Of a stretch of 40,073 nucleotides of DNA, positions 1 through 40,073 are shown piece after piece. Source of the stretch: Desulfobacterales bacterium (GTDB taxonomy: Bacteria > Desulfobacterota > Desulfobacteria > Desulfobacterales > UBA11574); NCBI GenBank assembly GCA_024641825.1, contig JAHECI010000005.1, positions 1 through 40,073 on the forward strand, read 5' to 3'. The position numbers and the translations under genes were made by a program. A model generated the notes under the pieces. That model worked only from the letters and a program-made list of their open reading frames with translations. It had not been told where the DNA came from and searched no databases. Position 1 is the first letter of the stretch; each line of letters starts with the position of its first letter.

Positions 1-1137
1 GGGATCGGCGGATTCAGCCCGCTGACCGGTTTTATGACCCGAGCGGACTGGAAAGGGGTATGTGAAAATTTTCAGCTTGCCGATGGAACCTTCTGGCCAA
101 TTCCGGTCACTTTATCCGCGGGCAAGGACGATGCTGACAGCATCAAGGTCGGCGATGAAGTAGCGCTTTGTGATCCGGATACCGGTGACATAATGGGCAC
201 CATGAAGGTCACGGAAAAATTTGAAATGACCGAGGCCGACAAAAAGTTCGAATGTGAAAAAGTCTATATGGGTGAAGGTACCTCGACTGTCGAGGAATTC
301 TGGAAGATTGCCGGCGAAGATCATCCCGGCGTCCAGATGGTCATGGCCCAAAAAGAATTCAGCCTTGCCGGACCGGTCAAGGTTTTAAGCGAAGGTGAGT
401 ATCCGACCAAATATGCCGGCGTCTATATGCGGCCGGAACAATCCCGAAAAATCTTCGAAGAAAAAGGTTGGAGTGAAATTGCCGCCCTTCAGCTCAGGAA
501 TCCCATGCACCGATCCCATGAATACCTCTGCAAGATCGCAGTGGAAGTTTGTGACGGCGTGTACATTCACTCTCTGGTCGGAAACCTGAAACCCGGTGAC
601 ATTCCCGCCGAAGTTCGCGTAGAATGTATCGACGCCCTTGTGAAGAACTACTTTGTGGATAAAAATGTGGTCCAGGGCGGCTACCCGCTGGACATGCGGT
701 ATGCCGGTCCCAGGGAAGGCCTGCTCCACGCCACCTTCCGCCAAAATTACGGGTGCTCCCGAATGATTATCGGCCGAGACCATGCAGGCGTAGGCGATTT
801 CTACGGCATGTTCGAAGCCCAGACCATCTTTAACAAGATTCCAACCTCTGACGATCCTGGGAAAAATTTGCTTTGCCAGCCTTTAAAGATCGACTGGACA
901 TTCTACTGTTACAAGTGTGACGGCATGGCCTCACTCAGAACCTGTCCCCACGGCAAGGAAGACCGGGTTCTTCTGTCCGGAACCATGCTGCGGAAGATGC
1001 TTTCAGAGGGCGGAGAACTTCCCGATCACTTTGGACGTGATGAAGTGGTTGCAATCCTCAGGAAATACTACGAAGGGCTCACAGAAAAGGTCGAAATCAA
1101 GATGCACGGCGCCGCCACCGGCGATAGTAAAAAATAG
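1..1137 (+). CDS. sat: Sulfate adenylyltransferase (ATP sulfurylase), 5'-truncated by the window edge
   Basis: Frame is open from base 1 ([12 protein letters not shown]...). Motifs [26 protein letters not shown] and [10 protein letters not shown] are present. Adjacent to qmo/apr. Confidence 0.97.
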
Positions 1138-1175
1138 TCGAGCAACCGAAAATGGGTTAGTGTTGCCCGTTAAAT

Positions 1176-1210
1176 AAAAAAGGGGAGACGATGCGTCTCC
1201 CCTTTTTTTT
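1176..1210. terminator. Bidirectional rho-independent terminator between convergent sat and qmoC
   Basis: AAAAAAGGGGAGACG-ATG-CGTCTCCCCTTTTTTTT: GC-rich stem flanked by an A-run and a T-run. Confidence 0.88.
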
Positions 1211-1237
1211 ATTATTTTTTTAAAAACGCCAATTTTT

Positions 1238-1387
1238 GATGGCAAAGTAAAAAGTTTCAAATTCCCCCGCATAAAACCAGCGGGATAAAAAGGCGCGCAA
1301 ATTCCGAGGAACGAGGCGTACTCACAGTACGCCGCAGTGACGAGGAATGCAGCGCAACGCAGAAGTTGGACTTTTTACGAAGCCATC
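1238..1387. mobile_element. MITE-like element, family B (ends GAYRRNNNCGTAAAAAGTC...GACTTTTTACGAARCCRTC), copy 1
   Basis: Imperfect terminal inverted repeats GATGGCAAAGTAAAAAGT / ACTTTTTACGAAGCCATC. Related ends recur at 11641-11704 and 14818-15007. Abuts the qmoC stop codon. Confidence 0.7.
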
Positions 1388-1389
1388 AG

Positions 1390-2529
1390 TTATTGTCTTT
1401 TGGAGTACTCATTATATGTCATTGCCACCGTCCGGTAAACGAGATGGGCCAGTTTTGAGAACGGCAGGAATGCAAACAGGTTGAATACAAAAATCAAATG
1501 GATGAAATACATAAAATAGGTCAAACCGGCCAAACCGGCCAGCCGGGTTCCCTCTGTAAGTATACCGGTGACACCGAGCCCCAATACGAGCCCCAGCAAG
1601 TACCAATCCTTATAAGTGGAGGTCTGGTCTTTTTTCGCCAGACGGTTTTTAATCATTAAAGCACTTCCGATAATGAGGGCCACGCCGCTGGCATTTGCCA
1701 GCCATTTGACAGGATTCAACTGTGAATAAGGACCATGCTGCTGAAAAACATATAGGACAACAAAGAATATGTTGGTTACGATAAAAAGCCCCACAAACGA
1801 CCAGAATACCATGAGGTGGGCTGTGGCACGGTCTTTGTTTTCCGAACATTCAGAAAACTTGTCATGTTTTAATATGGTCGGCAAAATACCGGGCAGTGCC
1901 TTGACAAATCCGATAACATTGAATTCTTTATTCTCGGTCTTGCCTTCCAGGACGGCATTTTCATGGATATTTGCGATAAATCTTTTCAGGCCTAAAGCGA
2001 AAATCACAACCACCCAGATCGCCAATGGAACAAAGATCATATCCACCAGCCATGTGGAAAAGAACTGAGAATGCGAAATCCCGTGTTCACCCAATTCCGG
2101 TGAAAAATCGAGGAGACCTGTGATAAGGCCCAGTACAATAAAAATTACCACGGGAATGGCCATAAGGATAGGGAGTTTTTTGGGATCGTTGACCGCTTTT
2201 CCGATGGCTTTGGGTACGGCATACTCCGCAATGGCATAGGAACGAACAGCGCCCAGCACTTCACCCGGTTTTGCCCCCCGGGGACACAGGGTGGTGCAGT
2301 CCCCGCAATGATGGCACAGCCAGATGTCAAGGTTATTGACCAGTTTGTCCTTTAACCCCCAGGATGCCGCGATCATCTCTTTCCTCGGAAACGGCTTGGT
2401 GTCCGGAGAAATGGGGCAGGCCACCGAGCAGGTCGCACATTGAAAGCATTTTTTCAGGGTGTCGCCCCCGAGCCCGATGACTTCTTTAATAAAGCCGACA
2501 TCAGGCTCTATCAGGTATTTGTCTGTCAT
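1390..2529 (-). CDS. qmoC: Quinone-interacting membrane-bound oxidoreductase subunit C
   Basis: HdrC-like 2x[4Fe-4S] motifs (CFQCATCSVACP, CHHCGDCTTLCP) plus a multi-TM cytochrome b domain ending PFSKLAH. Start moved to ATG 2529, which has a GGAGG RBS. Confidence 0.95.
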   Translation of the reverse strand: MTDKYLIEPDVGFIKEVIGLGGDTLKKCFQCATCSVACPISPDTKPFPRKEMIAASWGLKDKLVNNLDIWLCHHCGDCTTLCPRGAKPGEVLGAVRSYAIAEYAVPKAIGKAVNDPKKLPILMAIPVVIFIVLGLITGLLDFSPELGEHGISHSQFFSTWLVDMIFVPLAIWVVVIFALGLKRFIANIHENAVLEGKTENKEFNVIGFVKALPGILPTILKHDKFSECSENKDRATAHLMVFWSFVGLFIVTNIFFVVLYVFQQHGPYSQLNPVKWLANASGVALIIGSALMIKNRLAKKDQTSTYKDWYLLGLVLGLGVTGILTEGTRLAGLAGLTYFMYFIHLIFVFNLFAFLPFSKLAHLVYRTVAMTYNEYSKRQ

Positions 2530-2560
2530 ATGGATACCTCCTGCTATTAAAAAAATGAAC

Positions 2561-2633
2561 ATTGACGATTGAAGATTTTTAATCTCATCTGGAGACCGAT
2601 TCAACCTTCAATCGCCAATTGAAAATCATCAAT
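2561..2633. repeat. 7-nt-periodic imperfect palindrome in the qmoB-qmoC spacer
   Basis: ATTGACG-ATTGAAG-ATTTT ... CAACCTT-CAATCGC-CAATTGA-AAATCAT-CAAT. Arms ATTGACGATTGAAG / CTTCAATCGCCAAT pair at 13 of 14 positions. Confidence 0.6.
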
Positions 2634-2635
2634 CC

Positions 2636-4972
2636 CTAAAATCCCTTGAACGGATTCGGACCCAGCTCTTCAACTTCTTCTACAAAGTCATTGATCATTT
2701 TGGGAAGCTTGTCATACTCGTCGATGGCAATCGTAAACTGGGTCACCCGTTCTTCTTCCAGGGCCAGGCTTGACAGCGCGTCACCGATTTTCTGCATTCT
2801 GATGTCCGAAAGTTCGCTCCCTTTAATAAAATGGCACTGGTAGTCGTCGCCGTGTTGGCAACCCAACAGAAAAGCCCCGTCCATACCCTGGGCCAGGGCG
2901 TCTTTGATCCAGATGACATTCATGGAACCCAAACAACGAATGGGAATAAACCGAACGTCGGCGGAGTAGACAAGCCGGTTCAAACCGGCGATGTCCAGCG
3001 CCGGATAGGCGTCGTTTTCACACACAAACCCGACAATCCGGAACGGGGGCTCGTCATAATCGTCTTCTGAAGGCACGCCGATGGCTTTGACCATGGAACC
3101 GACACTGTCGATGTTATAATCGGCAAAACCGATGATACGCTCGGGACAGGCGCCCATACAGGTACCGCACCGTCGGCAGCGGGCCGGATTCGGCTTGGGG
3201 GTTCCCTTTTCATCATCATCCAGGGCCCCGAAGGGACATTCTTCGGTACATCGCTTACACTGGGTGCATCTCTGGAAGAAAAAATCCGGAAATGTCATAT
3301 CCCCGGACCTGGGATGGACGGAAACGCCGCGGTTTACCGATTCAATGCACTGGATTGCTTTGAGGGCGGCACCGGTGGCATCTTCCATGGATTCTTCTAT
3401 GGTCATGCTTCGCCGAACGGCGCCGGCCGCATAAATGCCGGTCCGCTGGGTTTCATAAGGAAAGCAGATATAATTGGAATCGCAGTAGCCGTCGAAAAGA
3501 CCGATATCCCGGAACGCCGGGCCCTGCCGATACGCCAGGTTGACCACCGGATCATCAACGGTAGCCGGAACCATACCGGCCGCCAGCACCACCAAATCGG
3601 CCTTGACTTTGACCTTTTCTCCCAAAAGGGTGTTATCGGCTTCGACAATCATGCCGTCGCCGTTTTTGGAAACATTGATCACTTCCCCTTTGGTCATGAA
3701 GATCCCTTCATCCTGCTGGATACTTTTGTAAAAATTTTCCAAAAGGCCGGGTGTCCGCATGTGCTGGTAAAAGATATAGGCCTTGCCGTCGTCATAATCT
3801 TCGCGGACATATTTGGCCTGCTTTAACGATACAAGGCTTGTGACCGAACCGCAGTAGTCAAAGTCGGCATCATCATCTCCTTTGCCGGGACTCTGAACAA
3901 AAACAACCGACTTGGCTTCTTTACCGCCCGAGGTGACGATCTTGCCTTGGGCCGCCATCTCCTCAAATTTGTGGTTGGTAACGACATCCGGAAGTAAACC
4001 GTATCCGAGATGTTCGAGTTCACCGGCTTCGGGTTCAAAGGGGCGCCAACCGGCAGCCAGCACAACGGCACCGAATTTTTCACCATCGGGATCGAACTTC
4101 AGAATATCGAGCTTGCCCTCGTTGTACTCCAGATAACGCTTATGTTGTGCTTCAACATCCAGTTCTTTACCGTTCTCATCGAACTTCATTTTTTCCGGAA
4201 GCGGGAAAGGAACGTCAAACTTCATTTTTTCACCGGGTTTTTTAAGCGTTACGGTGAAATCCCCGGGCTCACCGGCGATACGGGCAACGATGGTTTCGGT
4301 TTTAACGGTAATACTGTCAAAGGCTTCAAGTTCTTTGATTTTGCTTTCAATAACCGGTGGCACCAGGTTTTCATAAGGATCGCCGGTGGGCAGCTGTTTG
4401 CGAATTTTGGCTGCATAGCCGCCAATTGCCGATTCTTTTTCGACAATGGTGACGTCATAACCGGCCTTGGCTGCATCCAGGGCCGCTGAAATCCCGGTGA
4501 TACCGCCGCCGATGACCAGGATTTTTCTGCTCAGGGCTTCCAGCTTGTACGGCTCCGGCAGCTTGATTTTTTCAACCTTGGCCATTCCCATTTTCAGATA
4601 ATCTTCGGCCAGCATCTGAAGGCGGTCAAAGTGTTCTTCATCGTCTTTTTGCTCTTCAGTCAGGGCGGGAAATTCGGATCTGGGATGGGACCAGACCGTC
4701 TGTTCGCGTAAGTTCACCCGGTCGACGATACAGCCCTCAAAGTTAAACACATCATAATTGACCCGGCGGGAACAGGCCGCAATAACCAAGGTGTTGTACC
4801 CATCGTCGGCGATACCCTTTTTGATGAGTTCAACCCCTTCCTTTCCGCATAAGAAAGGATGCGTTTTAACCGGATAACCTTCTTCTTCCGGGACTTCGCA
4901 CAGCGCTTCCATATCAAGGGCATCCCCGATGCCGCATCCTGTGCAAATATATACACAATACTTTTTATCCAT
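2636..4972 (-). CDS. qmoB: Quinone-interacting membrane-bound oxidoreductase subunit B (HdrA-like FAD/FeS plus MvhD-like domain)
   Basis: VIGGGITG FAD motif; CTQCKRCTEECP and CRRCGTCMGACP ferredoxin motifs; C-terminal MvhD-like region (CENDAYPALD...RCLGS...CHF); position in the operon. Confidence 0.96.
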   Translation of the reverse strand: MDKKYCVYICTGCGIGDALDMEALCEVPEEEGYPVKTHPFLCGKEGVELIKKGIADDGYNTLVIAACSRRVNYDVFNFEGCIVDRVNLREQTVWSHPRSEFPALTEEQKDDEEHFDRLQMLAEDYLKMGMAKVEKIKLPEPYKLEALSRKILVIGGGITGISAALDAAKAGYDVTIVEKESAIGGYAAKIRKQLPTGDPYENLVPPVIESKIKELEAFDSITVKTETIVARIAGEPGDFTVTLKKPGEKMKFDVPFPLPEKMKFDENGKELDVEAQHKRYLEYNEGKLDILKFDPDGEKFGAVVLAAGWRPFEPEAGELEHLGYGLLPDVVTNHKFEEMAAQGKIVTSGGKEAKSVVFVQSPGKGDDDADFDYCGSVTSLVSLKQAKYVREDYDDGKAYIFYQHMRTPGLLENFYKSIQQDEGIFMTKGEVINVSKNGDGMIVEADNTLLGEKVKVKADLVVLAAGMVPATVDDPVVNLAYRQGPAFRDIGLFDGYCDSNYICFPYETQRTGIYAAGAVRRSMTIEESMEDATGAALKAIQCIESVNRGVSVHPRSGDMTFPDFFFQRCTQCKRCTEECPFGALDDDEKGTPKPNPARCRRCGTCMGACPERIIGFADYNIDSVGSMVKAIGVPSEDDYDEPPFRIVGFVCENDAYPALDIAGLNRLVYSADVRFIPIRCLGSMNVIWIKDALAQGMDGAFLLGCQHGDDYQCHFIKGSELSDIRMQKIGDALSSLALEEERVTQFTIAIDEYDKLPKMINDFVEEVEELGPNPFKGF

Positions 4973-4982
4973 GAATAACCTC

Positions 4983-6260
4983 CTACTTCCTCACCAGGGT
5001 TTGAATCGCTTTAAGGGCCATTCCGGTGGCATTCTGGTTTGACGAAACCACATCTGCCGGTTTGTTGGCACATCCTGCAGCAAACATGCCACCTTTTTCA
5101 AAGTCGTTGATGATAAAGCCGTCTTCGTTATATTTCAGATCGGAAGGCAGTTTGTCTATCGCTGCTGTCGGCTGCATACCGGTGGCAAGGACTGCCATTT
5201 CAACGGTTTGCTTGATCTTTTCACCAGTGACTGCATTTTCTGCAACCACGGTGATATTGCCGGTCCCTGGATCTTCACTCACTTCGGCAACCTTGCCTTT
5301 GATTAGAAAGACATTTTCATCGTCTTTGATGGTCCGGTAAAATTTCTCATACCGCTGGCCCGGTGATCGGATATCGATATAAAAGATATAAACCTTGGCG
5401 TCCGGATAGGCTTCCCGAATGTAGGTGGCCTGCTTCAAAGAGGCCATACAGCAGATATATGAACAATATGGAAGATAGTTTTCATCTCTGGAGCCGGCGC
5501 ACTGGACAAATGCAATGCTCTCGGGTTCCTTGTCGTCCGACGGACGGATAATTTTCCCTTTGGTCGGACCGTTGGGAGACGCAAGTCTTTCCATCATCAT
5601 GTTGGTAATAACATTCGGATATTGCCCGAAACCGAGATTGTCAATCTTGGTGGCGTCATAAGGCTCCCACCCTGTAGCCCAGACGATGGCACCCACTTTA
5701 AGGTTGGTGGTTACGGCCGCCATGTCGAGATCGACGGCATCGTATTTACAGGCTTCCTTACATTTTTGGGCATCCTCGGTTCCGATAATTTGAGGAGAAA
5801 TTACATAACGGGTCGGAAACGCCATTTCAAACGGCAGATACGCCCCCTTGATCTTGTTCATTCCAAAATTGAAATCACTGGAAATTTCAGTTTCACAGGC
5901 CGCCTCACAATCGCCGCAGCAGGTACAGTTTTCATTGACATATCTGGGGCTCGACTTGACTGCAACCTCATAACTCCCCGGCGTGCCCTCGACCTTTTCA
6001 ACCTCAGCCTGTGTTAAAACGGTTATTCTCGGATTATCTTTTATCCTCCGGAAATTGATTTCCAGACCACAGCTCGGAGGACATAGCTTGGGAAAATATT
6101 TATTTAGCTGTGCCACTCTTCCGCCTAAGTAAGGATTTTTTTCCACCAAAAACACGTCGTATCCGACTTCGGCAGCTTCGAGGGCCGTGGTCAAGCCGCT
6201 TATCCCTCCTCCAACAACCAAAATGCTCCCGTTTGAAGGGGCTGCTTTGTTTTCTGTCAT
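4983..6260 (-). CDS. qmoA: Quinone-interacting membrane-bound oxidoreductase subunit A (HdrA-like flavoprotein)
   Basis: VVGGGISGLTTALEAAE, YFPKLCPPSCGLE and QCAGSRD...YCSYICC motifs; directly downstream of aprA. Confidence 0.96.
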   Translation of the reverse strand: MTENKAAPSNGSILVVGGGISGLTTALEAAEVGYDVFLVEKNPYLGGRVAQLNKYFPKLCPPSCGLEINFRRIKDNPRITVLTQAEVEKVEGTPGSYEVAVKSSPRYVNENCTCCGDCEAACETEISSDFNFGMNKIKGAYLPFEMAFPTRYVISPQIIGTEDAQKCKEACKYDAVDLDMAAVTTNLKVGAIVWATGWEPYDATKIDNLGFGQYPNVITNMMMERLASPNGPTKGKIIRPSDDKEPESIAFVQCAGSRDENYLPYCSYICCMASLKQATYIREAYPDAKVYIFYIDIRSPGQRYEKFYRTIKDDENVFLIKGKVAEVSEDPGTGNITVVAENAVTGEKIKQTVEMAVLATGMQPTAAIDKLPSDLKYNEDGFIINDFEKGGMFAAGCANKPADVVSSNQNATGMALKAIQTLVRK

Positions 6261-6361
6261 GCTATCCCTCCGTACAATATAAATTCAGTGATCCTGACCG
6301 TCGTGGAGCCTGTATAGGGCTCGGAATGTTGTTTGAATAGTTGAGTGATGCTGTCCAGGGA

Positions 6362-6452
6362 GAGTGATGAAGTGATGGCGTGATGGCGTAATGCATTTAA
6401 TGGAAGCGCTGAAATTTCTGATTTTCCATCCAATACTCCAAATTAACCAATA
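6362..6452. repeat. 8-nt-periodic degenerate repeat in the aprA-qmoA spacer
   Basis: GAGTGATG-AAGTGATG-GCGTGATG-GCGTAATG followed by a loosely complementary arm CCATCCAATACTCCAAATTAACCAATA. Confidence 0.5.
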
Positions 6453-6532
6453 TGAAAAATCCCTGGATACCACCCAAATTCCTGCGTGTCAGAAGTTCTG
6501 AAGTTCAGGGGTTTAAAAAAAACGATATCGAA

Positions 6533-6571
6533 TTAATAAAAACCTCCAGGCGTCTTTAAGACGCCTGGAGG
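6533..6571 (-). terminator. Rho-independent terminator downstream of aprA
   Basis: Perfect 13-bp stem CCTCCAGGCGTCT-TTA-AGACGCCTGGAGG, followed on the minus strand by TTTTTATTAA. Confidence 0.8.
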
Positions 6572-6602
6572 CGTATCAGATTAGGTTAAAACCGATTCAG
6601 CA

Positions 6603-8576
6603 TTAATCAGGGATGATCTTGATGTAATCTTTCTTGAAGATATCCCATTCTTTTGCCTTGGGATCAAACTTGGAGTTGACGAAGCAGAACCAGTTCTCGT
6701 CATCCTGTCCCGGATAGTCGGCCTGATAGTAGAATCCCGGATAACGGGTTTCTTTGCGGTACTGGATGTGACGCAGGTGAGACTCGACCGTCCAGATGCG
6801 GTGCTCGATTTCCCAGCAGCGCATCAGCTCATGGAGGTCACCGGCAGCCAGCTTTTCACAGTCTTCGCGCATCATCAAGAGCATATCCATGATGATTTCC
6901 AGACTCTTGGAACTGGTCATGTAGTAGGTGGCCGTACCGGCGCCATACTCATGGGTAGCCTTCATCAAACGATACATCATCCCTTCGGGTTTGAGATAAT
7001 TGGGGTTGATATTGATGGCCGTGGTATAATCTTTATGCTCAAGGAATGTTCTCACCGGCTTGTAAATCAGGTCCACCAGCTCTTCCTTGGACTGGCTAAG
7101 GGTCGGTTTAAAGTCGGCATTGTCACGTACAAACCGGGCCATGGATTTGGCGCAAATACGCCCTTCTGCATGGGAACCGGAGGAGAATTTGTGACCGGAA
7201 GCACCCACACCGTCACCGGAGGTAAACAGGCCGTTGACCGTGGTCATGCGGTTGTACACCTTGCCTTTGTAGCGGATTTTGTAGGCATCGGGGATCCAGT
7301 CATAATCAGGTCCGGAGGTCCACAGCCCGCAGCAGCCGGAATGGGATCCCAGCAGATACGGCTCAGTGGGCATAATCTCTGAGGTCTTCTTGTCCGGCTC
7401 GGTGTTCGTGCCGCACCACAGGTTGGCCTGTCCGCAGGTCATATCCAGGAAGTTTTCCCAGGCTTCTGATTCCAGGGCCTTCATTTCTTTCTTGTCCAGC
7501 TTTCCACCCATTTCTTTAAGGGCTGTGACCGTATCCATCATGACCGGGCCGCGGCCTTCCTTCATCTCAAAGAGCATCAGGTGGTTTCGGAGACAGGTGG
7601 GCGTAATGGCGGCGGTTCCGTAAGGTGCATATCTCTGAAGCTCTTTTTTGGCGGCGTCACTGCCCACGTAGCCTTCACCCAGGCCGTTGACGGTTTTGGC
7701 CTTGAAGAGCAAGAACCAGGCGCCGACCGGGCCGTAACCGTCTTTGTAACGGGACGGGGTGAAACGGTTTTCCATCATGGTAAGCTCGGCACCGACCTTC
7801 ATGCACATGGTGTAGGTGGAACCTGCGTTCCAAACCGGATACCAGGCACGGCCTTTTCCTTCACCGACGCTGCGGGGCTGGTAGATGTTTACAGCACCGC
7901 CGCAGGCAACCATCATGGTGTTGCATTTAATAATGAAGACTTTGTTTTCACGAACGGAAAAACCGACCGCGCCGGCGATTCTGTTTTCTTCATTGGCGTC
8001 CAGAAGAAGCTCGACGATAAAGCAACGTTCCAGAATATTTTCGTCGCCAAGGGCCAGCTTGGCAGCTTCGGCAACGATTCTTTTGTAGGATTCGCCGTTA
8101 ATCATGATCTGCCATTTTCCGGTACGGACAGGTTTGGCGCCACCCTTTAAGGTCCCCATTTTCAGGCCTTTTTTACCGTCCATTTTCTTTCCGTCGTCGG
8201 ACAGTTTCCACATGGGAAGGCCCCATTCCTCGAACAGAAATACGGAATCGTCCACGTGACAGCCCAGATCAAAGATAAGGTCTTCACGGACAATGCCCAT
8301 GAGGTCGTTGCGGACCATACGGACATAGTCATCGGGCGTATTCTCGCCGATGTAGGTGTTGATTGCTGAAAGCCCCTGGGCAACAGCGCCACTACGCTCC
8401 ATAGCAGCTTTGTCACACAGCAGGATTTTTGCGTCAGGTGCCCATTTCTTAACCTCGAAAGCAGTTCCGCAGGCAGCCATGCCGCCGCCTACGATCAGAA
8501 TATCAACTTCGCGCTCTTCAACTTCCGGATCCCTGACAGCTTTGAGTTCTCCCAAAGGTTTATTCGGTAATGCCAT
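6603..8576 (-). CDS. aprA: Adenylylsulfate (APS) reductase alpha subunit
   Basis: RSGAVAQGLSAINTY, WQIMINGESYK, GRAWYPVWNAGS and GHKFSSGSHAEGR signatures. Confidence 0.99.
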   Translation of the reverse strand: MALPNKPLGELKAVRDPEVEEREVDILIVGGGMAACGTAFEVKKWAPDAKILLCDKAAMERSGAVAQGLSAINTYIGENTPDDYVRMVRNDLMGIVREDLIFDLGCHVDDSVFLFEEWGLPMWKLSDDGKKMDGKKGLKMGTLKGGAKPVRTGKWQIMINGESYKRIVAEAAKLALGDENILERCFIVELLLDANEENRIAGAVGFSVRENKVFIIKCNTMMVACGGAVNIYQPRSVGEGKGRAWYPVWNAGSTYTMCMKVGAELTMMENRFTPSRYKDGYGPVGAWFLLFKAKTVNGLGEGYVGSDAAKKELQRYAPYGTAAITPTCLRNHLMLFEMKEGRGPVMMDTVTALKEMGGKLDKKEMKALESEAWENFLDMTCGQANLWCGTNTEPDKKTSEIMPTEPYLLGSHSGCCGLWTSGPDYDWIPDAYKIRYKGKVYNRMTTVNGLFTSGDGVGASGHKFSSGSHAEGRICAKSMARFVRDNADFKPTLSQSKEELVDLIYKPVRTFLEHKDYTTAININPNYLKPEGMMYRLMKATHEYGAGTATYYMTSSKSLEIIMDMLLMMREDCEKLAAGDLHELMRCWEIEHRIWTVESHLRHIQYRKETRYPGFYYQADYPGQDDENWFCFVNSKFDPKAKEWDIFKKDYIKIIPD

Positions 8577-8645
8577 GTTATATCCTCCTTAATCAAAATA
8601 TTCTAAATTGATCATCAAACCGTAGTTTTGAAAACCCGTTACCGC

Positions 8646-9083
8646 TTAAACAGTTGCCTGCGGTTTTGGAATTTCATAACCATCTGCCTCTTGGGTGGAA
8701 AGTAGCTCGCTGTCAAGATTTTTGCCTGCGAGATCAAGATACGCATTGGCAGCGCCTTCAGGCGTTGTCCGGATGGGGAACTTAAAGCGCTTGATGGTTC
8801 CGTTCCTGAACTTACAGGTCCACATGACATCCTCGGTTCCAAGCATCGGCATAATGCTGCTTCCCAGCGGTACAAAGTCGGCATAACCTCTGACTTCGAT
8901 TGCCTGGGTGGGGCAGATCTTGACGCATGAAAAACATTCCCAGCACTGATCAGGCTCCTGATTGTAAGCCTTCATTTCATTGGGTTCCAGAACCATCAGG
9001 TCGTTGGGGCAAATGTACATGCACGCGGTCTTGTCCCCGCCTTTGCAGCCATCGCATTTTTCGGTAATTACGAAACTTGGCAT
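8646..9083 (-). CDS. aprB: Adenylylsulfate reductase beta subunit
   Basis: MPSFV..CDGCKGGDKTACMYICPNDLM, CWECFSCVKICP and RFKFPIRTT; AGGAGGT RBS at 9090-9096. Confidence 0.99.
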   Translation of the reverse strand: MPSFVITEKCDGCKGGDKTACMYICPNDLMVLEPNEMKAYNQEPDQCWECFSCVKICPTQAIEVRGYADFVPLGSSIMPMLGTEDVMWTCKFRNGTIKRFKFPIRTTPEGAANAYLDLAGKNLDSELLSTQEADGYEIPKPQATV

Positions 9084-9989: not shown

Positions 9990-10718
9990 ATGGAAAACAA
10001 CATATCCCCCATTTCGTCGAACGACACCTTCACGTTTTCATGCTCCCAAAAAGTCGCCTGTTTCAATGAATGTTGTCGAGATCTGAACCAGTTTCTCACC
10101 CCTTACGACATCCTGCGCCTTAAAAACAGACTCGACTTGACATCGCGTATTTTTCTTGAGCGTTATACCACCCAGCACATTGGTCCTGAAACCGGACTTC
10201 CCGTAATCACGCTTAAAACAGACTACGCTCACAAATTTAAGTGCCCGTTTGTGACCGAGTCAGGATGCAGGGTATACGAAGATCGTCCGTCCTCGTGCCG
10301 GACGTATCCGCTGATCCGGGTTGCATCCCGGTCCAGAGAAACCGGCACGGTCACCGAACAGTACATGCTGTTAAAAGAAGCGCACTGTTTGGGATGTAAA
10401 CAGGGACACCGCTGGACGGTGCAGGATTGGATAGAAAATCAGGAGGTTGCCATTTACAATCAAATGAACGACATGTTCATGGAGATCATCGGCCTCAAAC
10501 ATCACCGCTTGCCCGGTCCGCTGGATGTAAAATCGGGTCTTATGTTTCACCTGGCGTGTTATGATCTTGACACCTTCAGATCCCATATCTTCGATAACGA
10601 TCTTTTAGGTGACTGGAATCTGGACCCAAAGACGATAGATGCCCTAAAACATGACCATGTCGAGCTGTTGAAACTCGGTTTTGAATGGGTCAAAGAGACC
10701 CTGTTTGGAAAACCTTGA
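9990..10718 (+). CDS. YkgJ-family (CxxCxxCC-type) cysteine-cluster protein
   Basis: FSC....ACFNECC, CPF....C.VYEDRPSSCRTYP and a later CLGC; AAAGGA RBS. Confidence 0.85.
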   Translation: MENNISPISSNDTFTFSCSQKVACFNECCRDLNQFLTPYDILRLKNRLDLTSRIFLERYTTQHIGPETGLPVITLKTDYAHKFKCPFVTESGCRVYEDRPSSCRTYPLIRVASRSRETGTVTEQYMLLKEAHCLGCKQGHRWTVQDWIENQEVAIYNQMNDMFMEIIGLKHHRLPGPLDVKSGLMFHLACYDLDTFRSHIFDNDLLGDWNLDPKTIDALKHDHVELLKLGFEWVKETLFGKP

Positions 10719-11746: not shown

Positions 11747-12529
11747 CTAACGCATTTTAAAATATTTAGATTGAATCCCCCAGACGTAAAATTTTACCCA
11801 TTCAAATCCGAATTTCATCAATTCCCCATCATCGGAACGGATTTGTTTCAAGATTTTTGATTTTACTTTATAGCGCTTTAAAAAGGTGCTTTTAAACAAA
11901 AATTCACGGAATGGGTCCATATTGTAGGTGGCCATGAACGCCATCTTGGCTTTGGGGCCTTCCGTCCCCTGGGAACCCCAGGGATCCGTTTGGAAAAGGC
12001 GTTTCAATTCCGCCCATCGAGCGGTCATTTTATTATATAAAACAGCATCTTGATCCTTGGCCCATGTTTGGGGGGTCCACTCTTTTTTTTCGTGCTGTCC
12101 CATACAGAAGTCCGGCGGTTTAAAAAAATGAACAACCTCTGTTCGATTCCCCTCGACATCATAAAAAACCCCCTGCTCCACCGGAAAGGTACGGCAGGTA
12201 TCGGGACGATCCGGATACACCGAACAGCCGGAGGCATTTAGAAACGGGCAGGTTTTTTCTTCATTTTCAGACATCTGCAAAAGTACTTCGGGGAAAAAAC
12301 TACCCGGCCGCAAGACAATATCGACGTATTTTTCCAGAAACCGATCCGAGTCCATATTCAGCCGCCGTTTCAGTCGGACAACGTCATAGGGGTACAAAAA
12401 AAGATTGAGATTTCGGCAGCATCGATTAAAACAGGGAATCCCCGGATAACAGTGAAAATTAAAGCTGTCTTCGGTTTCAAGCCGTCTGCCGGGCAGTCTG
12501 TCGAGATCGTCGATATCTATCTGTTTCAT
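11747..12529 (-). CDS. YkgJ-family cysteine-cluster protein (paralog of 9990-10718)
   Basis: FHC.PGIPCFNRCCRNLNLFLYPYDVVRLK and CPFL...GCSVYPDRPDTCRTFP; collinear with the first YkgJ through the C-terminal LMKFGFEWVK. Confidence 0.85.
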   Translation of the reverse strand: MKQIDIDDLDRLPGRRLETEDSFNFHCYPGIPCFNRCCRNLNLFLYPYDVVRLKRRLNMDSDRFLEKYVDIVLRPGSFFPEVLLQMSENEEKTCPFLNASGCSVYPDRPDTCRTFPVEQGVFYDVEGNRTEVVHFFKPPDFCMGQHEKKEWTPQTWAKDQDAVLYNKMTARWAELKRLFQTDPWGSQGTEGPKAKMAFMATYNMDPFREFLFKSTFLKRYKVKSKILKQIRSDDGELMKFGFEWVKFYVWGIQSKYFKMR

Positions 12530-34563: not shown

Positions 34564-35382
34564 ATGAAAGGATCGCCATGCTCGGAATCCTCTCTTGCAG
34601 CGTCTGACTTCAACCTTGCCGTGTGCATACTGGCCAGCGGAAGCAAGGGGAACGCCATTTTTGTGTCCAGCGGTTCCACCTCCATACTGATCGATGCCGG
34701 CCTTTCAGGAATCGAAATCGAACGCCGGTTAAAGTCCAGAGGACTTTCCCCCAAGGATCTCGATGCCATTCTCGTATCCCATGAACATACGGACCATATC
34801 CAGGGTGTCGGCGTTCTTTCCCGCCGTTTCAACCTGCCGGTTTATATGAATTCAAAAACAGAGGGGATTGCCTTTCCACAGATCGGAAAGGTCCGTAACG
34901 TCAAAAACTTCGCGTGTGGTTCGACCTTTCGAATCGGCGATCTGGCAATACATCCCTTTTCCATATCCCACGATGCAGAAGATCCGGCGGGGTTTACCGT
35001 CAATCGGAACGGAGCCACCATCGGCATCGCCACCGACCTCGGCATCGCCACCGCTATGGTCAAAGAACATCTTAAAGGGTGCGGCCTATTGATCCTTGAA
35101 GCCAACCATGACGAAGAGATGCTCATCAACGGCCCCTATCCGTGGTCGGTCAAACAGCGGGTAAAAAGCAGAACCGGCCACCTGTCCAACGCGGCATCGA
35201 AAACCCTCCTCAGCGAGATCCAACACGACCGCTTGAAGCATGTCATTCTGGCCCACCTCAGCGAAACCAACAATACACCCCAGAAAGCCTTAAATGAAGT
35301 CGGTCAGGCCCTGACCCGCAGTAAAGCGCGCCTGGATGTTGCCGTCCAGCATGAATGCGGAGCGCTCCTAAGACTTAAATAA
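34564..35382 (+). CDS. MBL-fold metallo-hydrolase (YycJ/WalJ-like)
   Basis: LASGSKGN, LIDAG, SHEHTDH, SHDA.DP, EANHD, GHLSN and AHLSETNN. Start placed at ATG 34564. Confidence 0.9.
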   Translation: MKGSPCSESSLAASDFNLAVCILASGSKGNAIFVSSGSTSILIDAGLSGIEIERRLKSRGLSPKDLDAILVSHEHTDHIQGVGVLSRRFNLPVYMNSKTEGIAFPQIGKVRNVKNFACGSTFRIGDLAIHPFSISHDAEDPAGFTVNRNGATIGIATDLGIATAMVKEHLKGCGLLILEANHDEEMLINGPYPWSVKQRVKSRTGHLSNAASKTLLSEIQHDRLKHVILAHLSETNNTPQKALNEVGQALTRSKARLDVAVQHECGALLRLK

Positions 35383-35383
35383 T

Positions 35384-35663
35384 TGAGGGGTCAGGGAGTT
35401 TTTATTCTAACTCCTTGAGTACCAGCGGAATGGATGATCTTTTTTTAAATCGGATGCTGTTTGAGTGGCTTAGGGATCGTTAGAAAGAACAGGCGCATGT
35501 AGAAATCTATCTATAAAGAAATATTAAAGTTATGCAATTAACCTATTGATATTTCAAGGATAATTTCCTGTTCTTTCTCTAGGATCCCTTGCCGCGAGTT
35601 CATGCGGTTTAAAAAAAGATTATTCATCGAGCGACTTTATTTAAAAAACACCCCGACCCTTCA
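35384..35663. mobile_element. MITE-like element, family A, copy 2, interrupted by a nested insertion
   Basis: Collinear with 12688-12818 apart from the insert; flanked by AATAAT direct repeats (35378-35383, 35664-35669), the left one overlapping the MBL-gene stop codon. Confidence 0.85.
35458..35601. mobile_element. 144-bp element nested in family-A copy 2
   Basis: Absent from copy 1; bounded by ATGC direct repeats; subterminal inverted repeats GGCTTAGGGATCGTTAGAAAGAACAGG / CCTGTTCTTTCTCTAGGATCCCTTGCC. Confidence 0.75.
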
Positions 35664-35706
35664 AATAATTGAGGGGTCGCGGTTTTTCCGTTTCCCCTCG
35701 CTTCGC

Positions 35707-36021
35707 TTATGACCTGGACAGTTTGATGGACACGTCGGCAGGAACTGCCAACTTGGCTTCCACTTCGACGGCTTTGATGATACCCACCGGGACAGGACAC
35801 GCCGCATGGGGGCAATGTTGCATGCTCAACTGGATCGTTTGAGGTATTGACTGGCGGAATGAGATTTCCTCAAACGGATTGACCTGCTTAAGATTTTGTG
35901 CCAACTTTTGAATGGACTCACAATCACTATTGATGACCAGGTTGCAGGCCTTACCGTTCATTTTCGCCTCAACCACGGTTGTGAAACCACAAATTCCCGA
36001 ATGTATTTCAGCTTTAGACAA
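35707..36021 (-). CDS. Small Cys-containing conserved protein (DUF6951-like), TTG start
   Basis: GICGF...SDC...CPHAACPVPVGIIKAVEVEA; AAGGAGG RBS. Confidence 0.7.
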   Translation of the reverse strand: MSKAEIHSGICGFTTVVEAKMNGKACNLVINSDCESIQKLAQNLKQVNPFEEISFRQSIPQTIQLSMQHCPHAACPVPVGIIKAVEVEAKLAVPADVSIKLSRS

Positions 36022-36206
36022 GACTTCCTCCTTAAGACAACGTGTCCGTATTTCATATTTGCGTTAAATTTCAATATCTAATTTTTGTAGAACATGACAT
36101 CTAATACGTCATCATCTGATTGGCAAGTTATTTTCGAAAACACTGCTTTTAAAACAAATCGTTATAATTTTTCGTTTGTGTCATCTCAGGATGTACCTCA
36201 TGATCA

Positions 36207-36278
36207 TCCTAACGATATCATCACCAGTGGGCATGGAGCGCCAGCGGAATGACCATCTGGTGGATGAAGTTATTAAGG
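36207..36278 (-). mobile_element. attC site (last in array; R'' degenerate)
   Basis: Minus strand CCTTAAT-AACTT-CATCCACC...GGTGATG-ATATC-GTTAGGA. L''/L' pair with one extra C. R'' has AAT instead of AAC. Confidence 0.75.
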
Positions 36279-36327
36279 CCAAGTTTTTCTCTCACAACCT
36301 CTCACGATCTACAAGCTCAAAGATGGC

Positions 36328-37461
36328 TTATTGTAAAATTTTAATTGTATCGGTTATATGCTTCAATATTTGTTTTTCTTTTTGAAAATGCTTTCCTTCA
36401 TCGGTGAGATTTAAGAGCAGAACTTTATACGGCTCGCCAGGTTTTGATAGTGAAACTGCGTAAATAGGTCCCTCTTGTGATTTTTCGATTTCTTTATCGC
36501 TTTCCTTTTCTTCTTGACCGTCCTCGTAAAGCGGCCAGGATTCTCTAACGACTGTCAGATAGATTTCAAGCGCCTTAAGATTATTAAGCGTCGTGAAGAT
36601 GTTCCTTTTGATAACATCGGTTGCGTACTGGGAACCGTTGGGACCGTCGGCAGAGAACATTATTTTCGCCATTCGTATTACGAAATCTTCAAAAGTCATT
36701 TTTTGCGGATTGAACTCTTGGTTTGGATATTGGGACATATCTTCGAAGTTGATCTCAATAAGCCAGCCAGTGCCGTTTCTTTTAAGTAAAAAGCCGCCCT
36801 TATTCATTTCATAATCGTTAGGATAAGCGAATTCGAAACAGTTCATAAAATCCCTGTAAGTTTTAAAGTCTGAAGGTACTTTTCCTTGCTCTTGTCTGAA
36901 CTCTACTTTCGTTCCGGTTGTGGGATCAAGCATAAGTATTTGATTTTCAACTGTTTCAGCCACAAGATAACCGGCCTCGTTAAATCCTTTCAAATTTCCC
37001 CATCGTAAGCCTAATTGCGTTTTTTCCAACGTTGAAAGATCGCTGATAATTTCACTTAACCCAAGATCTCCTATAGGTTTCCCATTTTTGAAGAAAGAAA
37101 AAATGATCTCTTCCTTGGTGTAGTTTGAGGGAAGTGCACCTTCTGCATAACTAGCGCCTATTATATGTTGTCCATCATTTGCCACCCAAACCTCCTCGAA
37201 ACATGCTTCTGTCGACCACATCGGATTTTTTTCTCTCCTTCCTACGTTTCCATGCCAGTTTACTTTGAAAACGAAAATGTTTTTGTCATCTGGGCAGACG
37301 ATTGCCGTGAATTTGTGATTTTTAGAGTGGAAGGTTTTCAATGGAAGTTTGCTTACGGGCACTTTAAAAGCGGGTTCAACAAGTGTTGGTTGGGCAAAGG
37401 CTAAAAGTGTTTGACCGATTATAAGAAAGCTTAATCCAATATTTCTGAGTTTTAGCTTCAT
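36328..37461 (-). CDS. Cassette-borne secreted hypothetical protein
   Basis: 377-aa ORF with an N-terminal signal peptide (..LLAFA|QP); AT-richer than host genes; bounded by attC sites. Confidence 0.8.
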   Translation of the reverse strand: MKLKLRNIGLSFLIIGQTLLAFAQPTLVEPAFKVPVSKLPLKTFHSKNHKFTAIVCPDDKNIFVFKVNWHGNVGRREKNPMWSTEACFEEVWVANDGQHIIGASYAEGALPSNYTKEEIIFSFFKNGKPIGDLGLSEIISDLSTLEKTQLGLRWGNLKGFNEAGYLVAETVENQILMLDPTTGTKVEFRQEQGKVPSDFKTYRDFMNCFEFAYPNDYEMNKGGFLLKRNGTGWLIEINFEDMSQYPNQEFNPQKMTFEDFVIRMAKIMFSADGPNGSQYATDVIKRNIFTTLNNLKALEIYLTVVRESWPLYEDGQEEKESDKEIEKSQEGPIYAVSLSKPGEPYKVLLLNLTDEGKHFQKEKQILKHITDTIKILQ

Positions 37462-37493
37462 ACTCTTAGCTTCCTCTATTTTTTCTCAAGTAT

Positions 37494-37557
37494 CCTTAAC
37501 ACCGCGGTTCACAGGCCGCGAGGTACGAGCGGTCCTTTGTGAAACCGAATGTTATGC
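37494..37557 (-). mobile_element. attC site
   Basis: Minus strand GCATAAC-ATTCG-GTTTCACA...TGTGAAC-CGCGGT-GTTAAGG: canonical 7-5-8...7-6-7 layout with one extra base in L''. Confidence 0.88.
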
Positions 37558-37576
37558 GAGTTTCTGTGATCTCTGA

Positions 37577-38026
37577 TTAAGACGAGTTTCGGCAAGCAAT
37601 AATATATCGATAGCCATACTCAATTACAGGTTCCCCTTTCTGATTTGTAACTTTGCATTTAATCCCTGCGAATCCTAAATCCGGTTTGCTTTTAGATCGT
37701 CTGAGATCGGTCCACCAAGCTTCGATAGAAAGGACGTCTTTTGGTCTTACTGGATTAAACATTTTGGCCTCATACATTCCAACCCCACTTAAAATTGCCA
37801 CGTCACCCTGCGCTTCTACAACATTACGAGTACAGGCGGAAATGGTGTGAAGCGATGAAGCGACAAGACCTCCGAAAATTGATTCCTTTGCTGCGATCTC
37901 ATCAGTATGAAATGGCTGTGGATCAAATCTTTTGGCGAATTCAATGATGTCCTTTTGGGTAAAAGCAAGCTTTTGGCAATGGAGATGCTCACCATCAGTA
38001 ATATCCTCAAAATATCTTTTTCCCAT
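37577..38026 (-). CDS. Cassette-borne MaoC-family (hotdog-fold) dehydratase
   Basis: YFED...IIEFAKRFDPQPFHTDE.AAKESIFGGLVAS..HT...F.NPVRP.D. Confidence 0.88.
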   Translation of the reverse strand: MGKRYFEDITDGEHLHCQKLAFTQKDIIEFAKRFDPQPFHTDEIAAKESIFGGLVASSLHTISACTRNVVEAQGDVAILSGVGMYEAKMFNPVRPKDVLSIEAWWTDLRRSKSKPDLGFAGIKCKVTNQKGEPVIEYGYRYIIACRNSS

Positions 38027-38050
38027 ACTTGCCTGCTCTTTACTCTTGGC

Positions 38051-38113
38051 GCATAACGTTGCTTTTCAGCGGCCGCGGCTTTTTTGCGATCCGCTGCAAA
38101 AGCCTTGTTGGGT
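38051..38113 (-). mobile_element. attC site
   Basis: Minus strand ACCCAAC-AAGGCT-TTTGCAGC...GCTGAAA-AGCAAC-GTTATGC; starts 7 nt after the stop codon of the upstream cassette gene. Confidence 0.88.
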
Positions 38114-38120
38114 GTTTTTA

Positions 38121-39026
38121 TTAATTCACACCTTCAAATCTTTCCCATTTGAAATTAGAGCTTTGAGAATCTCCGGAACGATAAATATTCATTAACGCTG
38201 CCAATGAATTATCATTGCAATCGTCATCACAATCTTTACCAATCTTTCTAAACAAAAATGTAACATCAGGATATGATGGAAACCGAATCGGAAAATTTTT
38301 AGGAGGGCCAATAGAGTTAGGCGAGAATCCCTCCGGCATTGCAGTCCATTCACTCTTTGAAGTATTGATTAGTATCCACTTGGCATCAATTTTAGCTATT
38401 ACAAATTGGTGGCCATTTATAGTCATTTCGCTATCATTTTTTTCAAGAGCTTTATTATAGTCATCCGCCTTACTTGAAATAACGTATCGAAGGTCTTCAG
38501 GTTTATCCATCAAACCGAGTGCTTTCACAACGGCGATAAATGAACGGGCATAATGGGAACAGCCAAAAGCAGCTTTGTATTTAATAATCTCATCAGCAGA
38601 TGGTGCGAAGAAGACATCTGCTGGAGTTTTTTTCATATATTTCTCATGCCAATCCTTTAAATTCCGTTTTTGTTCAGCTGACATTTTAAAGGAAACAAGA
38701 AAACCAAGCTTAACTTTTTCTAATAAATCATAGTAGATATATCTACTTGGCTTTATAGAATTTTTGTTGACGCCTGTGTTTTCGTCGATCAGTATTTTGG
38801 ATACCTTGATAAGTACTGATAATTTATCTTTTTCTGGGTAGGAATCAAGAACAGGTTTTACAACATTAGATACATAATCATTTACAACTGGGGTGACTTC
38901 TATAAGATTTTCTTTCTTATCATTGTGTTTCAACGATTGAATCGACGTAGCAGAACACGATAAAATGGCAACAAATAGTATGGTTAAAAGCACTGTAATA
39001 TTAATTGATTTCAGTATATGTTTCAT
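38121..39026 (-). CDS. Cassette-borne lipoprotein with a transglutaminase-like (Cys-His-Asn) domain
   Basis: Lipobox ILS-C after a hydrophobic stretch; GCSHYARSFIAVVKALG and GHQFVIAKIDAKWILINTS. Start placed at ATG 39026 because the longer track ORF runs through attC. Confidence 0.72.
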   Translation of the reverse strand: MKHILKSINITVLLTILFVAILSCSATSIQSLKHNDKKENLIEVTPVVNDYVSNVVKPVLDSYPEKDKLSVLIKVSKILIDENTGVNKNSIKPSRYIYYDLLEKVKLGFLVSFKMSAEQKRNLKDWHEKYMKKTPADVFFAPSADEIIKYKAAFGCSHYARSFIAVVKALGLMDKPEDLRYVISSKADDYNKALEKNDSEMTINGHQFVIAKIDAKWILINTSKSEWTAMPEGFSPNSIGPPKNFPIRFPSYPDVTFLFRKIGKDCDDDCNDNSLAALMNIYRSGDSQSSNFKWERFEGVN

Positions 39027-39079
39027 ACTCAATTCCTGATTATGAAATGATCGATCTGTTTTATTTGATTGATCGCAAC

Positions 39080-39147
39080 ACCCAACGGCCGGGCTAACAG
39101 GTTCGCGGCGGGTTTTCCGCGCATCCTTGTTCAGCACGATGTTGGGG
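39080..39147 (-). mobile_element. attC site
   Basis: Minus strand CCCCAAC-ATCGT-GCTGAACA...TGTTAGC-CCGGCC-GTTGGGT: canonical layout with one extra G in L''. Confidence 0.88.
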
Positions 39148-39226
39148 AACAATCGTTGTCCACGGCCTGATTATAAAGATTGTCTAGTCCCCCAATCCGC
39201 TCAAAAAAGTTGCAGCCGCAGCCGAC

Positions 39227-39865
39227 TTACTTGACCAGCACCAGTCCCGCCAGATTGCCCACCGGGATATCCTCTGGATTGGCGTCGCTACCATAAGGAT
39301 AGATCTCCCACCCCGACGAGGCGATCAAACGGTACACATCCATACCCACCGCCTCCATGGAGGGCCGGGCTTTGAGGGGGAAACGGCATTTTTCGCCTTT
39401 TAGCACTTGGCAGCCCAGGTTGGGGTCGCAAAGAGACGAGAAGCAACTGCCCGCACTGAAACCTACAGCCAAGTAATGTCCGTCGTAGAAAGCCGCGGAC
39501 TCCAACTTGCTTACAATTTCCAAAATGCTCTTGAAGGCGGCCCTACGCTCCTTGTCGTTTCGGTCACGTTTCAGTACCTCGGAGTGCACCCTGCGAAGAA
39601 AAAGCAGACCATGGCTGTAGCTTTTCAGCAATTGTCGTATTTCAGATGGCTTGGGCGCATGGGGCGGGCATTGGGCGCAGGTGTTGTATCCGAAACACTG
39701 GGGAACCCTACACTTGAAAGCGACCGCGTCCTCCACCGGTATTTTAGAGGCATCCACCACCCGTGCTTCGTCGGCCCCGAGTTTTAAGGCATATTGACAA
39801 TACTTGTCGAGATCTTTGAGCAATATTACCCGATCGCGGTCTTCGGCTATTTTAGCTATTGGCAT
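39227..39865 (-). CDS. DUF2284-family predicted metal-binding protein (first cassette)
   Basis: KCRVPQCFGYNTCAQCPPHAP, AGSC...C...C and CRFP..ARPSMEAVGMDV; GGAGGAG RBS at 39872-39878. Confidence 0.85.
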   Translation of the reverse strand: MPIAKIAEDRDRVILLKDLDKYCQYALKLGADEARVVDASKIPVEDAVAFKCRVPQCFGYNTCAQCPPHAPKPSEIRQLLKSYSHGLLFLRRVHSEVLKRDRNDKERRAAFKSILEIVSKLESAAFYDGHYLAVGFSAGSCFSSLCDPNLGCQVLKGEKCRFPLKARPSMEAVGMDVYRLIASSGWEIYPYGSDANPEDIPVGNLAGLVLVK

Positions 39866-39874
39866 AAATGTCTC

Positions 39875-40073
39875 CTCCAACATTATATATTATACGGCTG
39901 CATCTTTTTTACAGGATTTATTAATATGAGACAATTATACAAAAATAGTGGAAAAACGAAAGAAAAATCAAAATATATAATGATATTAATTTTCTATGCT
40001 TATTTTTGACGGCGGAAAACTTATACAAAATTGTAATAAATACATCTTTTTGCTCTTATTATGGGAATTATGA
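39875..40073 (-). other. Candidate attI / cassette-promoter region
   Basis: GTTGGAG (39881-39875) matches the complement of the first attC R'' at 6/7. It is preceded by very AT-rich DNA with TATAAT hexamers and no attC hairpin. Confidence 0.4.

Follow-up and report, generated by a model that had tools for sequence, protein, structure and literature searches.

How did four genes, each trailed by an imperfect palindrome, come to lie together on the chromosome of an uncultured sulfate reducer? This question is raised by one end of a 40,073-nt stretch of DNA from a Desulfobacterales bacterium (contig JAHECI010000005.1, positions 1 to 40,073), which was analysed as a whole and is called the window here. 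Four open reading frames (ORFs) lie on the minus strand within 36328-39865, and each is followed by such a palindrome 3' of its stop codon. Our analyses suggest that the locus is very probably the attI-proximal end of a chromosomal integron, in which a probable attI (39879-39893) is followed by four promoterless minus-strand cassettes that were inserted by an integrase at G|TT.

The array is compact, as shown in Table 1. The cassettes are 557-1287 bp long and carry one ORF apiece, with the attC site at the 3' end. All four sites are located on the minus strand within 2.9 kb, 6-79 nt past minus-strand stop codons. At least two co-oriented attC sites close together and 3' of ORFs make up a cassette array or a cluster of attC sites lacking an integrase (CALIN), and this structure was found here. 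Translation of the first ORF is taken to start at ATG 39865, since full-coverage homologues among the matches listed are nearly all 212 aa long. Therefore, the GTTGGAG core of cassette 1 is non-coding and lies 16 nt upstream of the start. Between the stop codon of cassette 1 and attC A, a short terminator-like hairpin with a T-run was observed (39214-39227), which is unusual for a promoterless cassette within an array.

Table 1. Positions of the cassettes, attC sites and adjoining features in the window
Feature	Position	Strand	Length	Content or basis
AT-rich region, probable attI and probable promoter region	39882-40073	-		crossover G 39881 | TT 39880-39879; shared junction 15-mer
Cassette 1	39086-39880	-	795 bp	ORF 39227-39865 (212 aa), DUF2284 metal-binding; attC A
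attC site A	39080-39147	-	68 nt	CCCCAAC...GTTGGGT
Cassette 2	38057-39085	-	1029 bp	ORF 38121-39026 (301 aa), lipoprotein-like; attC B
attC site B	38051-38114	-	63-64 nt	(C)ACCCAAC...GTTATGC
Cassette 3	37500-38056	-	557 bp	ORF 37577-38026 (149 aa), MaoC-like hot-dog dehydratase; attC C
attC site C	37494-37557	-	64 nt	GCATAAC...GTTAAGG
Cassette 4	36213-37499	-	1287 bp	ORF 36328-37461 (377 aa), secreted; degenerate terminal attC D
attC site D	36207-36278	-	72 nt	CCTTAAT...GTTAGGA
Interval between last R' core and resumption of L001 similarity (36134)	36135-36206		72 bp	blastn against L001
DUF6951 gene with its own terminator hairpin	35707-36021	-		Pfam and terminator scan

Read in the direction of the genes, each site consists of a 7-nt R'', a spacer of 4-5 nt, the L'' arm, a variable centre, the L' arm, a spacer of 4-6 nt and an R' of the form GTTRRRN. 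A preliminary description of the locus, made from the sequence alone, had reported four minus-strand genes each with an attC-like palindrome of 63-72 bp, and its coordinates, sizes and core sequences proved correct. It had assigned canonical R''-L''...L'-R' spacing to all four sites. The AAC/GTT triplets are canonical in A, B and C (3/4 sites), whereas D reads AAT...GTT instead of the conserved AAC. The single extra base that it had placed in L'' is present in B and D, whereas comparison of the sites with their folds by eye gave an excess of L'' over L' of two bases in A and three in C; no site has an extra base on L'. Mismatch between R'' and R' within each composite site was likewise seen in B, C and D (3, 2 and 3 of 7 positions), but A has only one mismatch in 7. 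As had been stated, the four sites differ in sequence, with a pairwise identity of only 48-60%.

The bottom strands were folded as single-stranded DNA. The L stem contains 1-3 unpaired bases, on the L'' side only, and the R stem is present in the folds except for the minimum-energy fold of D. Compared with dinucleotide shuffles, the sites gave z scores of -3.29 (A), -2.56 (B), -2.75 (C) and -2.65 (D), and only 1, 1, 1 and 3 of 200 shuffles, respectively, folded equally well. A MAFFT alignment of the four sites was out of structural register and was not used for covariation counts.

We also searched for the sites with a covariance model, R1, derived only from class 1 integron plasmids. Thirteen stretches of such plasmids were fetched, the attC after each annotated cassette gene was delimited in nine loci, and 16 distinct sites were kept. 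The sites of aac(3)-IIg, an NTF2-like gene, the arr gene of plasmid locus L084 and aacA34 were left out because the delimiting rule gave no clear site, and others, such as those of aadA15, arr-2 and further aac(6')-Ib copies, were left out as duplicates. The structure line, with 7 R-box pairs and 9 L-box pairs, was set by hand, and R1 is a proxy for the model of IntegronFinder. On both strands of the whole 40-kb window with filters off, R1 gave seven matches at E<=10, and the best four were the four sites: B (22.1 bits, E 0.0018), A (18.1 bits, E 0.018), C (14.8 bits, E 0.13) and D (9.6 bits, E 2.7). These four matches were full-length and on the minus strand; the remaining three (9.3, 8.1 and 7.6 bits) were collapsed, with most of the model skipped. 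Controls were run with the same settings. In 91,117 bases of six related loci, R1 gave 10.9, 10.5 and 10.1 bits in addition to an attC-like site of 27.4 bits in locus L016, and in 87,079 bases of six further loci it gave 11.1, 9.5 and 9.2 bits in addition to a site of 18.9 bits in locus L004. The noise ceiling across these 178 kb of related genomes is 11.1 bits. In four plasmid loci, the training sites scored 35-76 bits and one untrained attC scored 42.7 bits, and true attCs on the wrong strand scored only 8-11 bits. Three cassette ends in L084 escaped R1, which is not very sensitive and does not replace the curated tool. By this proxy, sites A, B and C stand well clear of the noise and are strand-specific. 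Site D counts only by its position, which is exactly where the fourth site is expected. In Rfam at gathering thresholds, the window gave tRNA only, and no curated family covers the attC-like sites.

Integron recombination takes place at G|TT, and the last six bases of R' go with the next cassette. Therefore, the leading core of a cassette should complement its own R'' rather than that of the composite site in which it lies. At positions 4-10 after the G, the own pairs matched at 4, 7, 5 and 5 of 7 positions and the composite pairs at 3, 2, 2 and 3, which gives 21/28 versus 10/28; among the 24 permutations, the own assignment alone reaches the observed sum. The chained pairs quoted in the preliminary description were exact: GTTGGAG/CCCCAAC at 6/7 in cassette 1, GTTGGGTGTT against its own R'' at a contiguous 10/10 in cassette 2, GTTATGCG against its own R'' at a contiguous 8/8 in cassette 3, and GTTAAGG/CCTTAAT at 6/7 in cassette 4, whose R'' carries AAT. 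The test is clear for cassettes 2-4. Chimeric attCs of this kind are described for integrons in excerpts of PMC4889954. The chained cores match the chimeric pattern, and terminators or repetitive extragenic palindromic (REP) elements would not make it.

Is the array a fixed part of this chromosomal region? A genome scan with the metallo-beta-lactamase (MBL)-fold protein encoded beside the array as query gave 80 Desulfobacterales loci, and the source contig is not among them. The locus L001 is 97% identical to the window over 5389 nt, and the flank is shared up to window base 36134 (blastn). Its gene order is MBL-fold gene, DUF6951 and amidohydrolase (PF04909), and the stop codon of the amidohydrolase gene is reached 10 nt past the 36134 breakpoint. 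The four cassette genes were found in none of the 80 loci, L001 included. The array is a presence/absence difference between very close relatives. Between its DUF6951 and amidohydrolase genes, L001 has a 152-bp insert that is not in the window (L001 11299-11450); it has the look of a miniature inverted-repeat transposable element (MITE), with terminal inverted repeats ...CGTAAAAAGTCC ... GGACTTTTTACG....

The locus L004, whose MBL-fold protein is 85% identical, revealed an integrase remnant at the same place. On its minus strand follow one another an amidohydrolase gene, an integrase fragment, about 220 AT-rich bases, a junction, an ORF and an attC. The fragment (L004 12045-12215) comprises only the last 57 integrase codons, directly past the amidohydrolase stop codon; tblastn aligns it with residues 277-328 of IntI1 at 67% identity (E 1e-15). 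In NCBIfam it matches the integron integrase TIGR02249 best (90.1 bits, with the alignment running to the end of the model), ahead of XerC (77.2) and XerD (73.1); the 57 codons do not reach the IntI-specific additional domain. Judged by its sequence, the fragment is best read as a truncated integron-integrase remnant, that is, as decay of intI beside a one-cassette array. The junction of L004 is CATAATATATAAT|GTTAGCTC, followed by a 111-aa ORF with a CxxCxxCC domain, and its attC starts with GAGCTAAC, matching its own leading core at 8/8. CxxCxxCC proteins of the Pfam family PF03692 are encoded not only by the single cassette of L004 (11450-11785) but also by two core genes of the window, at 9990-10718 and 11747-12529.

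A further attC-like site was observed in the stretch 3994-4771 of L016, a metagenome-assembled genome (MAG) of Thermodesulfobacteriota, where an ORF of the HEPN type (RiboL-PSP / MAE_28990) is followed by the 27.4-bit R1 match, which is 125 nt long and the best in the window and the relatives searched, and then by an ORF with an HNH domain. The HEPN ORF lies about 0.5 kb downstream of the MBL-fold gene on the opposite strand, and neither an integrase nor an attI motif was seen on this 6.2-kb contig. We also considered whether the MBL-fold and amidohydrolase genes, which lie 170 bp to 8 kb apart, enclose a general insertion hot spot, and dropped the idea; distant relatives hold chemotaxis and metabolic genes there, with no integrase in 35 ORFs.

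The preliminary description had proposed IntI-mediated integration of cassettes at G|TT. This is supported by the detection of the sites with a model from class 1 plasmids, the chimeric attCs, the absence of the array from L001 and the integrase remnant of L004 at the same locus. As grounds for abandoning the proposal, it had named rejection of all four sites by a covariance model together with a fixed order of the genes in relatives lacking the palindromes; R1, as a proxy model, keeps the sites, and the genes are not fixed in the relatives.

Comparison with L004 also indicates where the upstream end of the array lies. The 15-mer ATAATATATAATGTT (39879-39893, minus strand) recurs exactly at the cassette junction of L004, and no third copy was found on either strand of 81 sources (1.17 Mb). 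The window junction at the start of cassette 1 is ATAATATATAAT|GTTGGAG; the window and L004 agree in all 12 nt that precede GTT, and the similarity stops at GTT. This suggests that the GTT end of the shared 15-mer is the probable crossover point of attI. In the alignment with L004, the integrase stop codon of that locus would fall about 70 nt beyond the end of the window. Therefore, an integrase gene or a remnant of one is expected just past 40073, on the minus strand like the cassettes. A perfect 11-nt inverted repeat, CATTATATATT / AATATATAATG, was found at 39881-39891 and 39972-39982, with its arms 80 nt apart. One arm is the conserved junction motif and the partner arm is not conserved in L004; the repeat may be an integrase-binding feature or chance in AT-rich DNA.

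What do the cassettes carry? The protein of cassette 1 belongs to PF10050 (DUF2284; Pfam E 1.2e-35) and has 595 homologues, with named examples from several phyla. Cassette 3 encodes a MaoC-type hot-dog dehydratase of PF01575 (Pfam E 4.4e-18). The proteins of cassettes 2 and 4 have no family in Pfam, NCBIfam or PADLOC. Cassette 2 encodes a protein with a lipoprotein-like N-terminus and 282 homologues, of which the best is 98% identical and labelled Balneolales, and others are labelled Desulfobacterales and Smithella. Together they form an as yet unnamed family of lipoproteins, which is common in Desulfobacterales and in which Cys156 and His206 are invariant. The AlphaFold2 model of the cassette 2 protein (pLDDT 77) gave only weak Foldseek matches (E>=0.013, nothing at E<=0.001), which point weakly to transglutaminase-like cysteine proteases. 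The protein of cassette 4 has a signal peptide and 32 unnamed metagenomic homologues, and its AlphaFold2 model (pLDDT 78) predicts a beta-rich N-terminal part and a PsbP-like C-terminal domain, with a target-normalised TM score of about 0.5-0.6. Sequence searches of the PDB with the profiles of cassettes 2 and 4 gave no matches, and PADLOC had no family for the five proteins tested. No resistance, defence or mobility family was found among the cassettes; the earlier remark that no resistance genes are recognisable agrees with Pfam and NCBIfam, which gave none.

The G+C content at third codon positions (GC3) is 0.29, 0.34 and 0.38 in cassettes 2, 3 and 4, versus 0.49-0.64 in 11 core genes, whereas cassette 1 is host-like (0.62). 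It had been proposed that the cassettes came from different donors. Different donors and a foreign origin of the cassettes may be inferred from the low GC3 of cassettes 2-4, the dissimilarity of the attCs and the Balneolales-labelled homologue of cassette 2, although the composition of cassette 1 is host-like.

Several observations weigh against reading the locus as the end of an integron. No integrase was found in the window, where PF00589 is present in 0/34 scanned ORFs and tblastn with IntI1 was negative; only 192 bases lie past the first cassette. The case for attI consists of the 15-mer and its position, and the whole 192-nt region is no more similar to L004 than dinucleotide shuffles are (97/500 reach the score). 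The scan for promoters and terminators was not above chance (13 promoters found versus 10.0 +/- 3.6). Site D is at noise level by its R1 score and lacks the AAC. The leading core of cassette 1 does not discriminate, since it matches 6/7 in both its own and its composite pair. R1 and its structure line are home-made, and with default filters the model gave a single match over the 81 sources, in L016, leaving the sites of the window unreported. Finally, if the source is a metagenome-assembled genome, like the closest relatives, assembly could in principle have created the junction at 36134-36207.

If the locus is the end of an integron, its history would be as follows, with the steps drawn from established integron biology. 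The integron integrase would fold the bottom strand of the attC of a circular cassette and recombine it with attI at G|TT. Each new cassette would enter beside attI, so that the DUF2284 cassette would be the latest arrival and cassette 4 the oldest. Each attC of the array would be a chimera, with R''-L''-L' from the upstream cassette and the last six R' bases from the downstream cassette. Transcription of the array would proceed from the attI side, possibly together with a co-oriented intI. Site D combines AAT with weakly paired R boxes and may have ceased to recombine; the distal end of the array would then be fixed.

The alternative that survives best is a frozen array (a CALIN as Cury et al. 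2016 use the term): an integrase once inserted the cassettes, the adjacent intI was later truncated or lost, and movement would now require an integrase acting in trans. We regard this as a serious, if doubtful, explanation. The sole relative with an integron at the locus, L004, retains no more of intI than its last 57 codons, tblastn with IntI1 gave no further integrase in the 80 loci and the window, and the terminal attC D is degenerate; in addition, CALINs outnumber complete integrons in genomes according to excerpts of PMC4889954 and PMC9668308. However, sites A-C retain the AAC/GTT triplets and the L-box stems, and own cores of 8 and 10 nt match perfectly. These intact features indicate recent insertion or little decay and therefore count against a relic. 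It is very improbable that an assembly or binning artefact joined the cassettes of another organism to a Desulfobacterales contig. The GC3 of cassettes 2-4 far below that of the flank, the Balneolales label of the best cassette 2 homologue, the location of homologues mostly on short contigs and the lack of the array in L001 would agree with such a join, but an integron remnant lies at the same place, between the amidohydrolase and MBL-fold genes, in L004, which was assembled independently and has the same junction 15-mer, and low GC3 is expected of captured cassettes. That the palindromes are ordinary intergenic hairpins (terminators or REP-like repeats) with a coincidental likeness to attC is hardly credible: they are G+C-rich and lie at gene 3' ends, and site D alone passes no model threshold, but no T-run follows any of the four sites, the terminator scan lists none of them whole and only the inner hairpin of A on the opposite strand, the N4AAC...GTTN4 ends are common to the sites, a plasmid-attC model finds them on one strand only, the chained cores would be unexplained and the true DUF6951 terminator looks quite different.

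The window is DNA of a sulfate reducer and carries genes for ATP sulfurylase, QmoABC-like proteins and AprBA at 1-9083 (Pfam scan). It also contains the core translation loci infC-rplT-pheST and nusA-infB-rbfA-truB-pnp (Pfam), and the pnp end of the latter is followed by genes for an M16 peptidase, a dUTPase and the MBL-fold hydrolase, up to 35382. The DUF6951 gene was considered as a further cassette and rejected, as it has its own terminator and no R1 match and is present in L001. The 72 bp between the array and the resumption of similarity to L001 had no match among the sequences examined and may be left over from the distal flank of the integron. On the other side of DUF6951, a segment of 286 bp that L001 lacks (35377-35677) lies between the MBL-fold gene and the terminator of DUF6951. 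It is flanked by a 15-nt direct repeat, AAATAATTGAGGGGT, at 35377 and 35663, of which L001 has one partial copy, and contains a perfect 12-nt inverted repeat (35482-35493 / 35567-35578). This stretch may be a small insertion or a MITE-like element.

How does the array compare with known systems? It resembles chromosomal integrons and CALINs, as excerpts of PMC4889954 present them, in its tandem short co-oriented ORFs and in attCs with AAC/GTT triplets, R and L boxes, unpaired spacers, extrahelical bases and a variable centre. The chimeric attCs, the lack of resistance genes and the prevalence of proteins of unknown function are also shared. A CALIN is defined there by at least two attCs, and the array has four within 4 kb. 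Unlike in complete chromosomal integrons, the integrase is not in view within the window. Sedentary chromosomal integrons tend to have homogeneous attCs, according to excerpts of PMC8618304, whereas those of the array are heterogeneous; moreover, its absence from L001 means that it is not fixed, unlike a sedentary integron. Cury et al. call an integron sedentary if it is in all genomes of the species or has >19 attC sites; here, L001 is without the array and only four sites are in view, and no further cassettes can lie beyond the probable attI. The arrangement of L004 recalls that of Treponema integrons in excerpts of PMC3607928; in L004, the integrase remnant is co-oriented with the cassette and its 3' end faces the AT-rich junction. 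In contrast to Treponema, the phylum is a different one, and co-orientation was seen only in the relative L004, as a 57-codon remnant. Mobile class 1 integrons on plasmids, such as In2 of R100 (L081), have attCs similar enough for their model to find A-C, and like them the array is short with heterogeneous attCs. However, it has no intI1, attI1, 3' conserved segment, transposon or plasmid context, its genes are unrelated to resistance, and its putative attI is AT-rich and differs from the region upstream of the plasmid cassettes.

Integrons have already been reported in Desulfobacterota, as seen in excerpts of PMC8618304 and PMC9668308, whose supplementary tables may list closely related elements. 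Therefore, the array is an example of a known gene-capture system and not a new kind of element, and it leaves the general knowledge of integrons unchanged. A bolder reading, which we consider possible but rather unlikely, is that the integron is active in sulfate-reducing Desulfobacterales. With a co-oriented integrase and an AT-rich attI, it would serve as a strain-variable capture platform that accepts attCs as dissimilar as those of mobile integrons and cassettes from other phyla, of which cassette 2, with its Balneolales-labelled homologue, would be an example. If this is true, a chromosomal integron would act like a mobile one in anoxic sediments. What is gained is a well-delimited integron in an environmental sulfate-reducer lineage, with a candidate attI, four complete cassettes mostly of unknown function and a natural empty-site comparison. 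Such arrays show accessory-gene uptake by uncultured anaerobes, and the candidate attI and the attCs would be defined substrates for probing the recombination range of a non-proteobacterial integrase.

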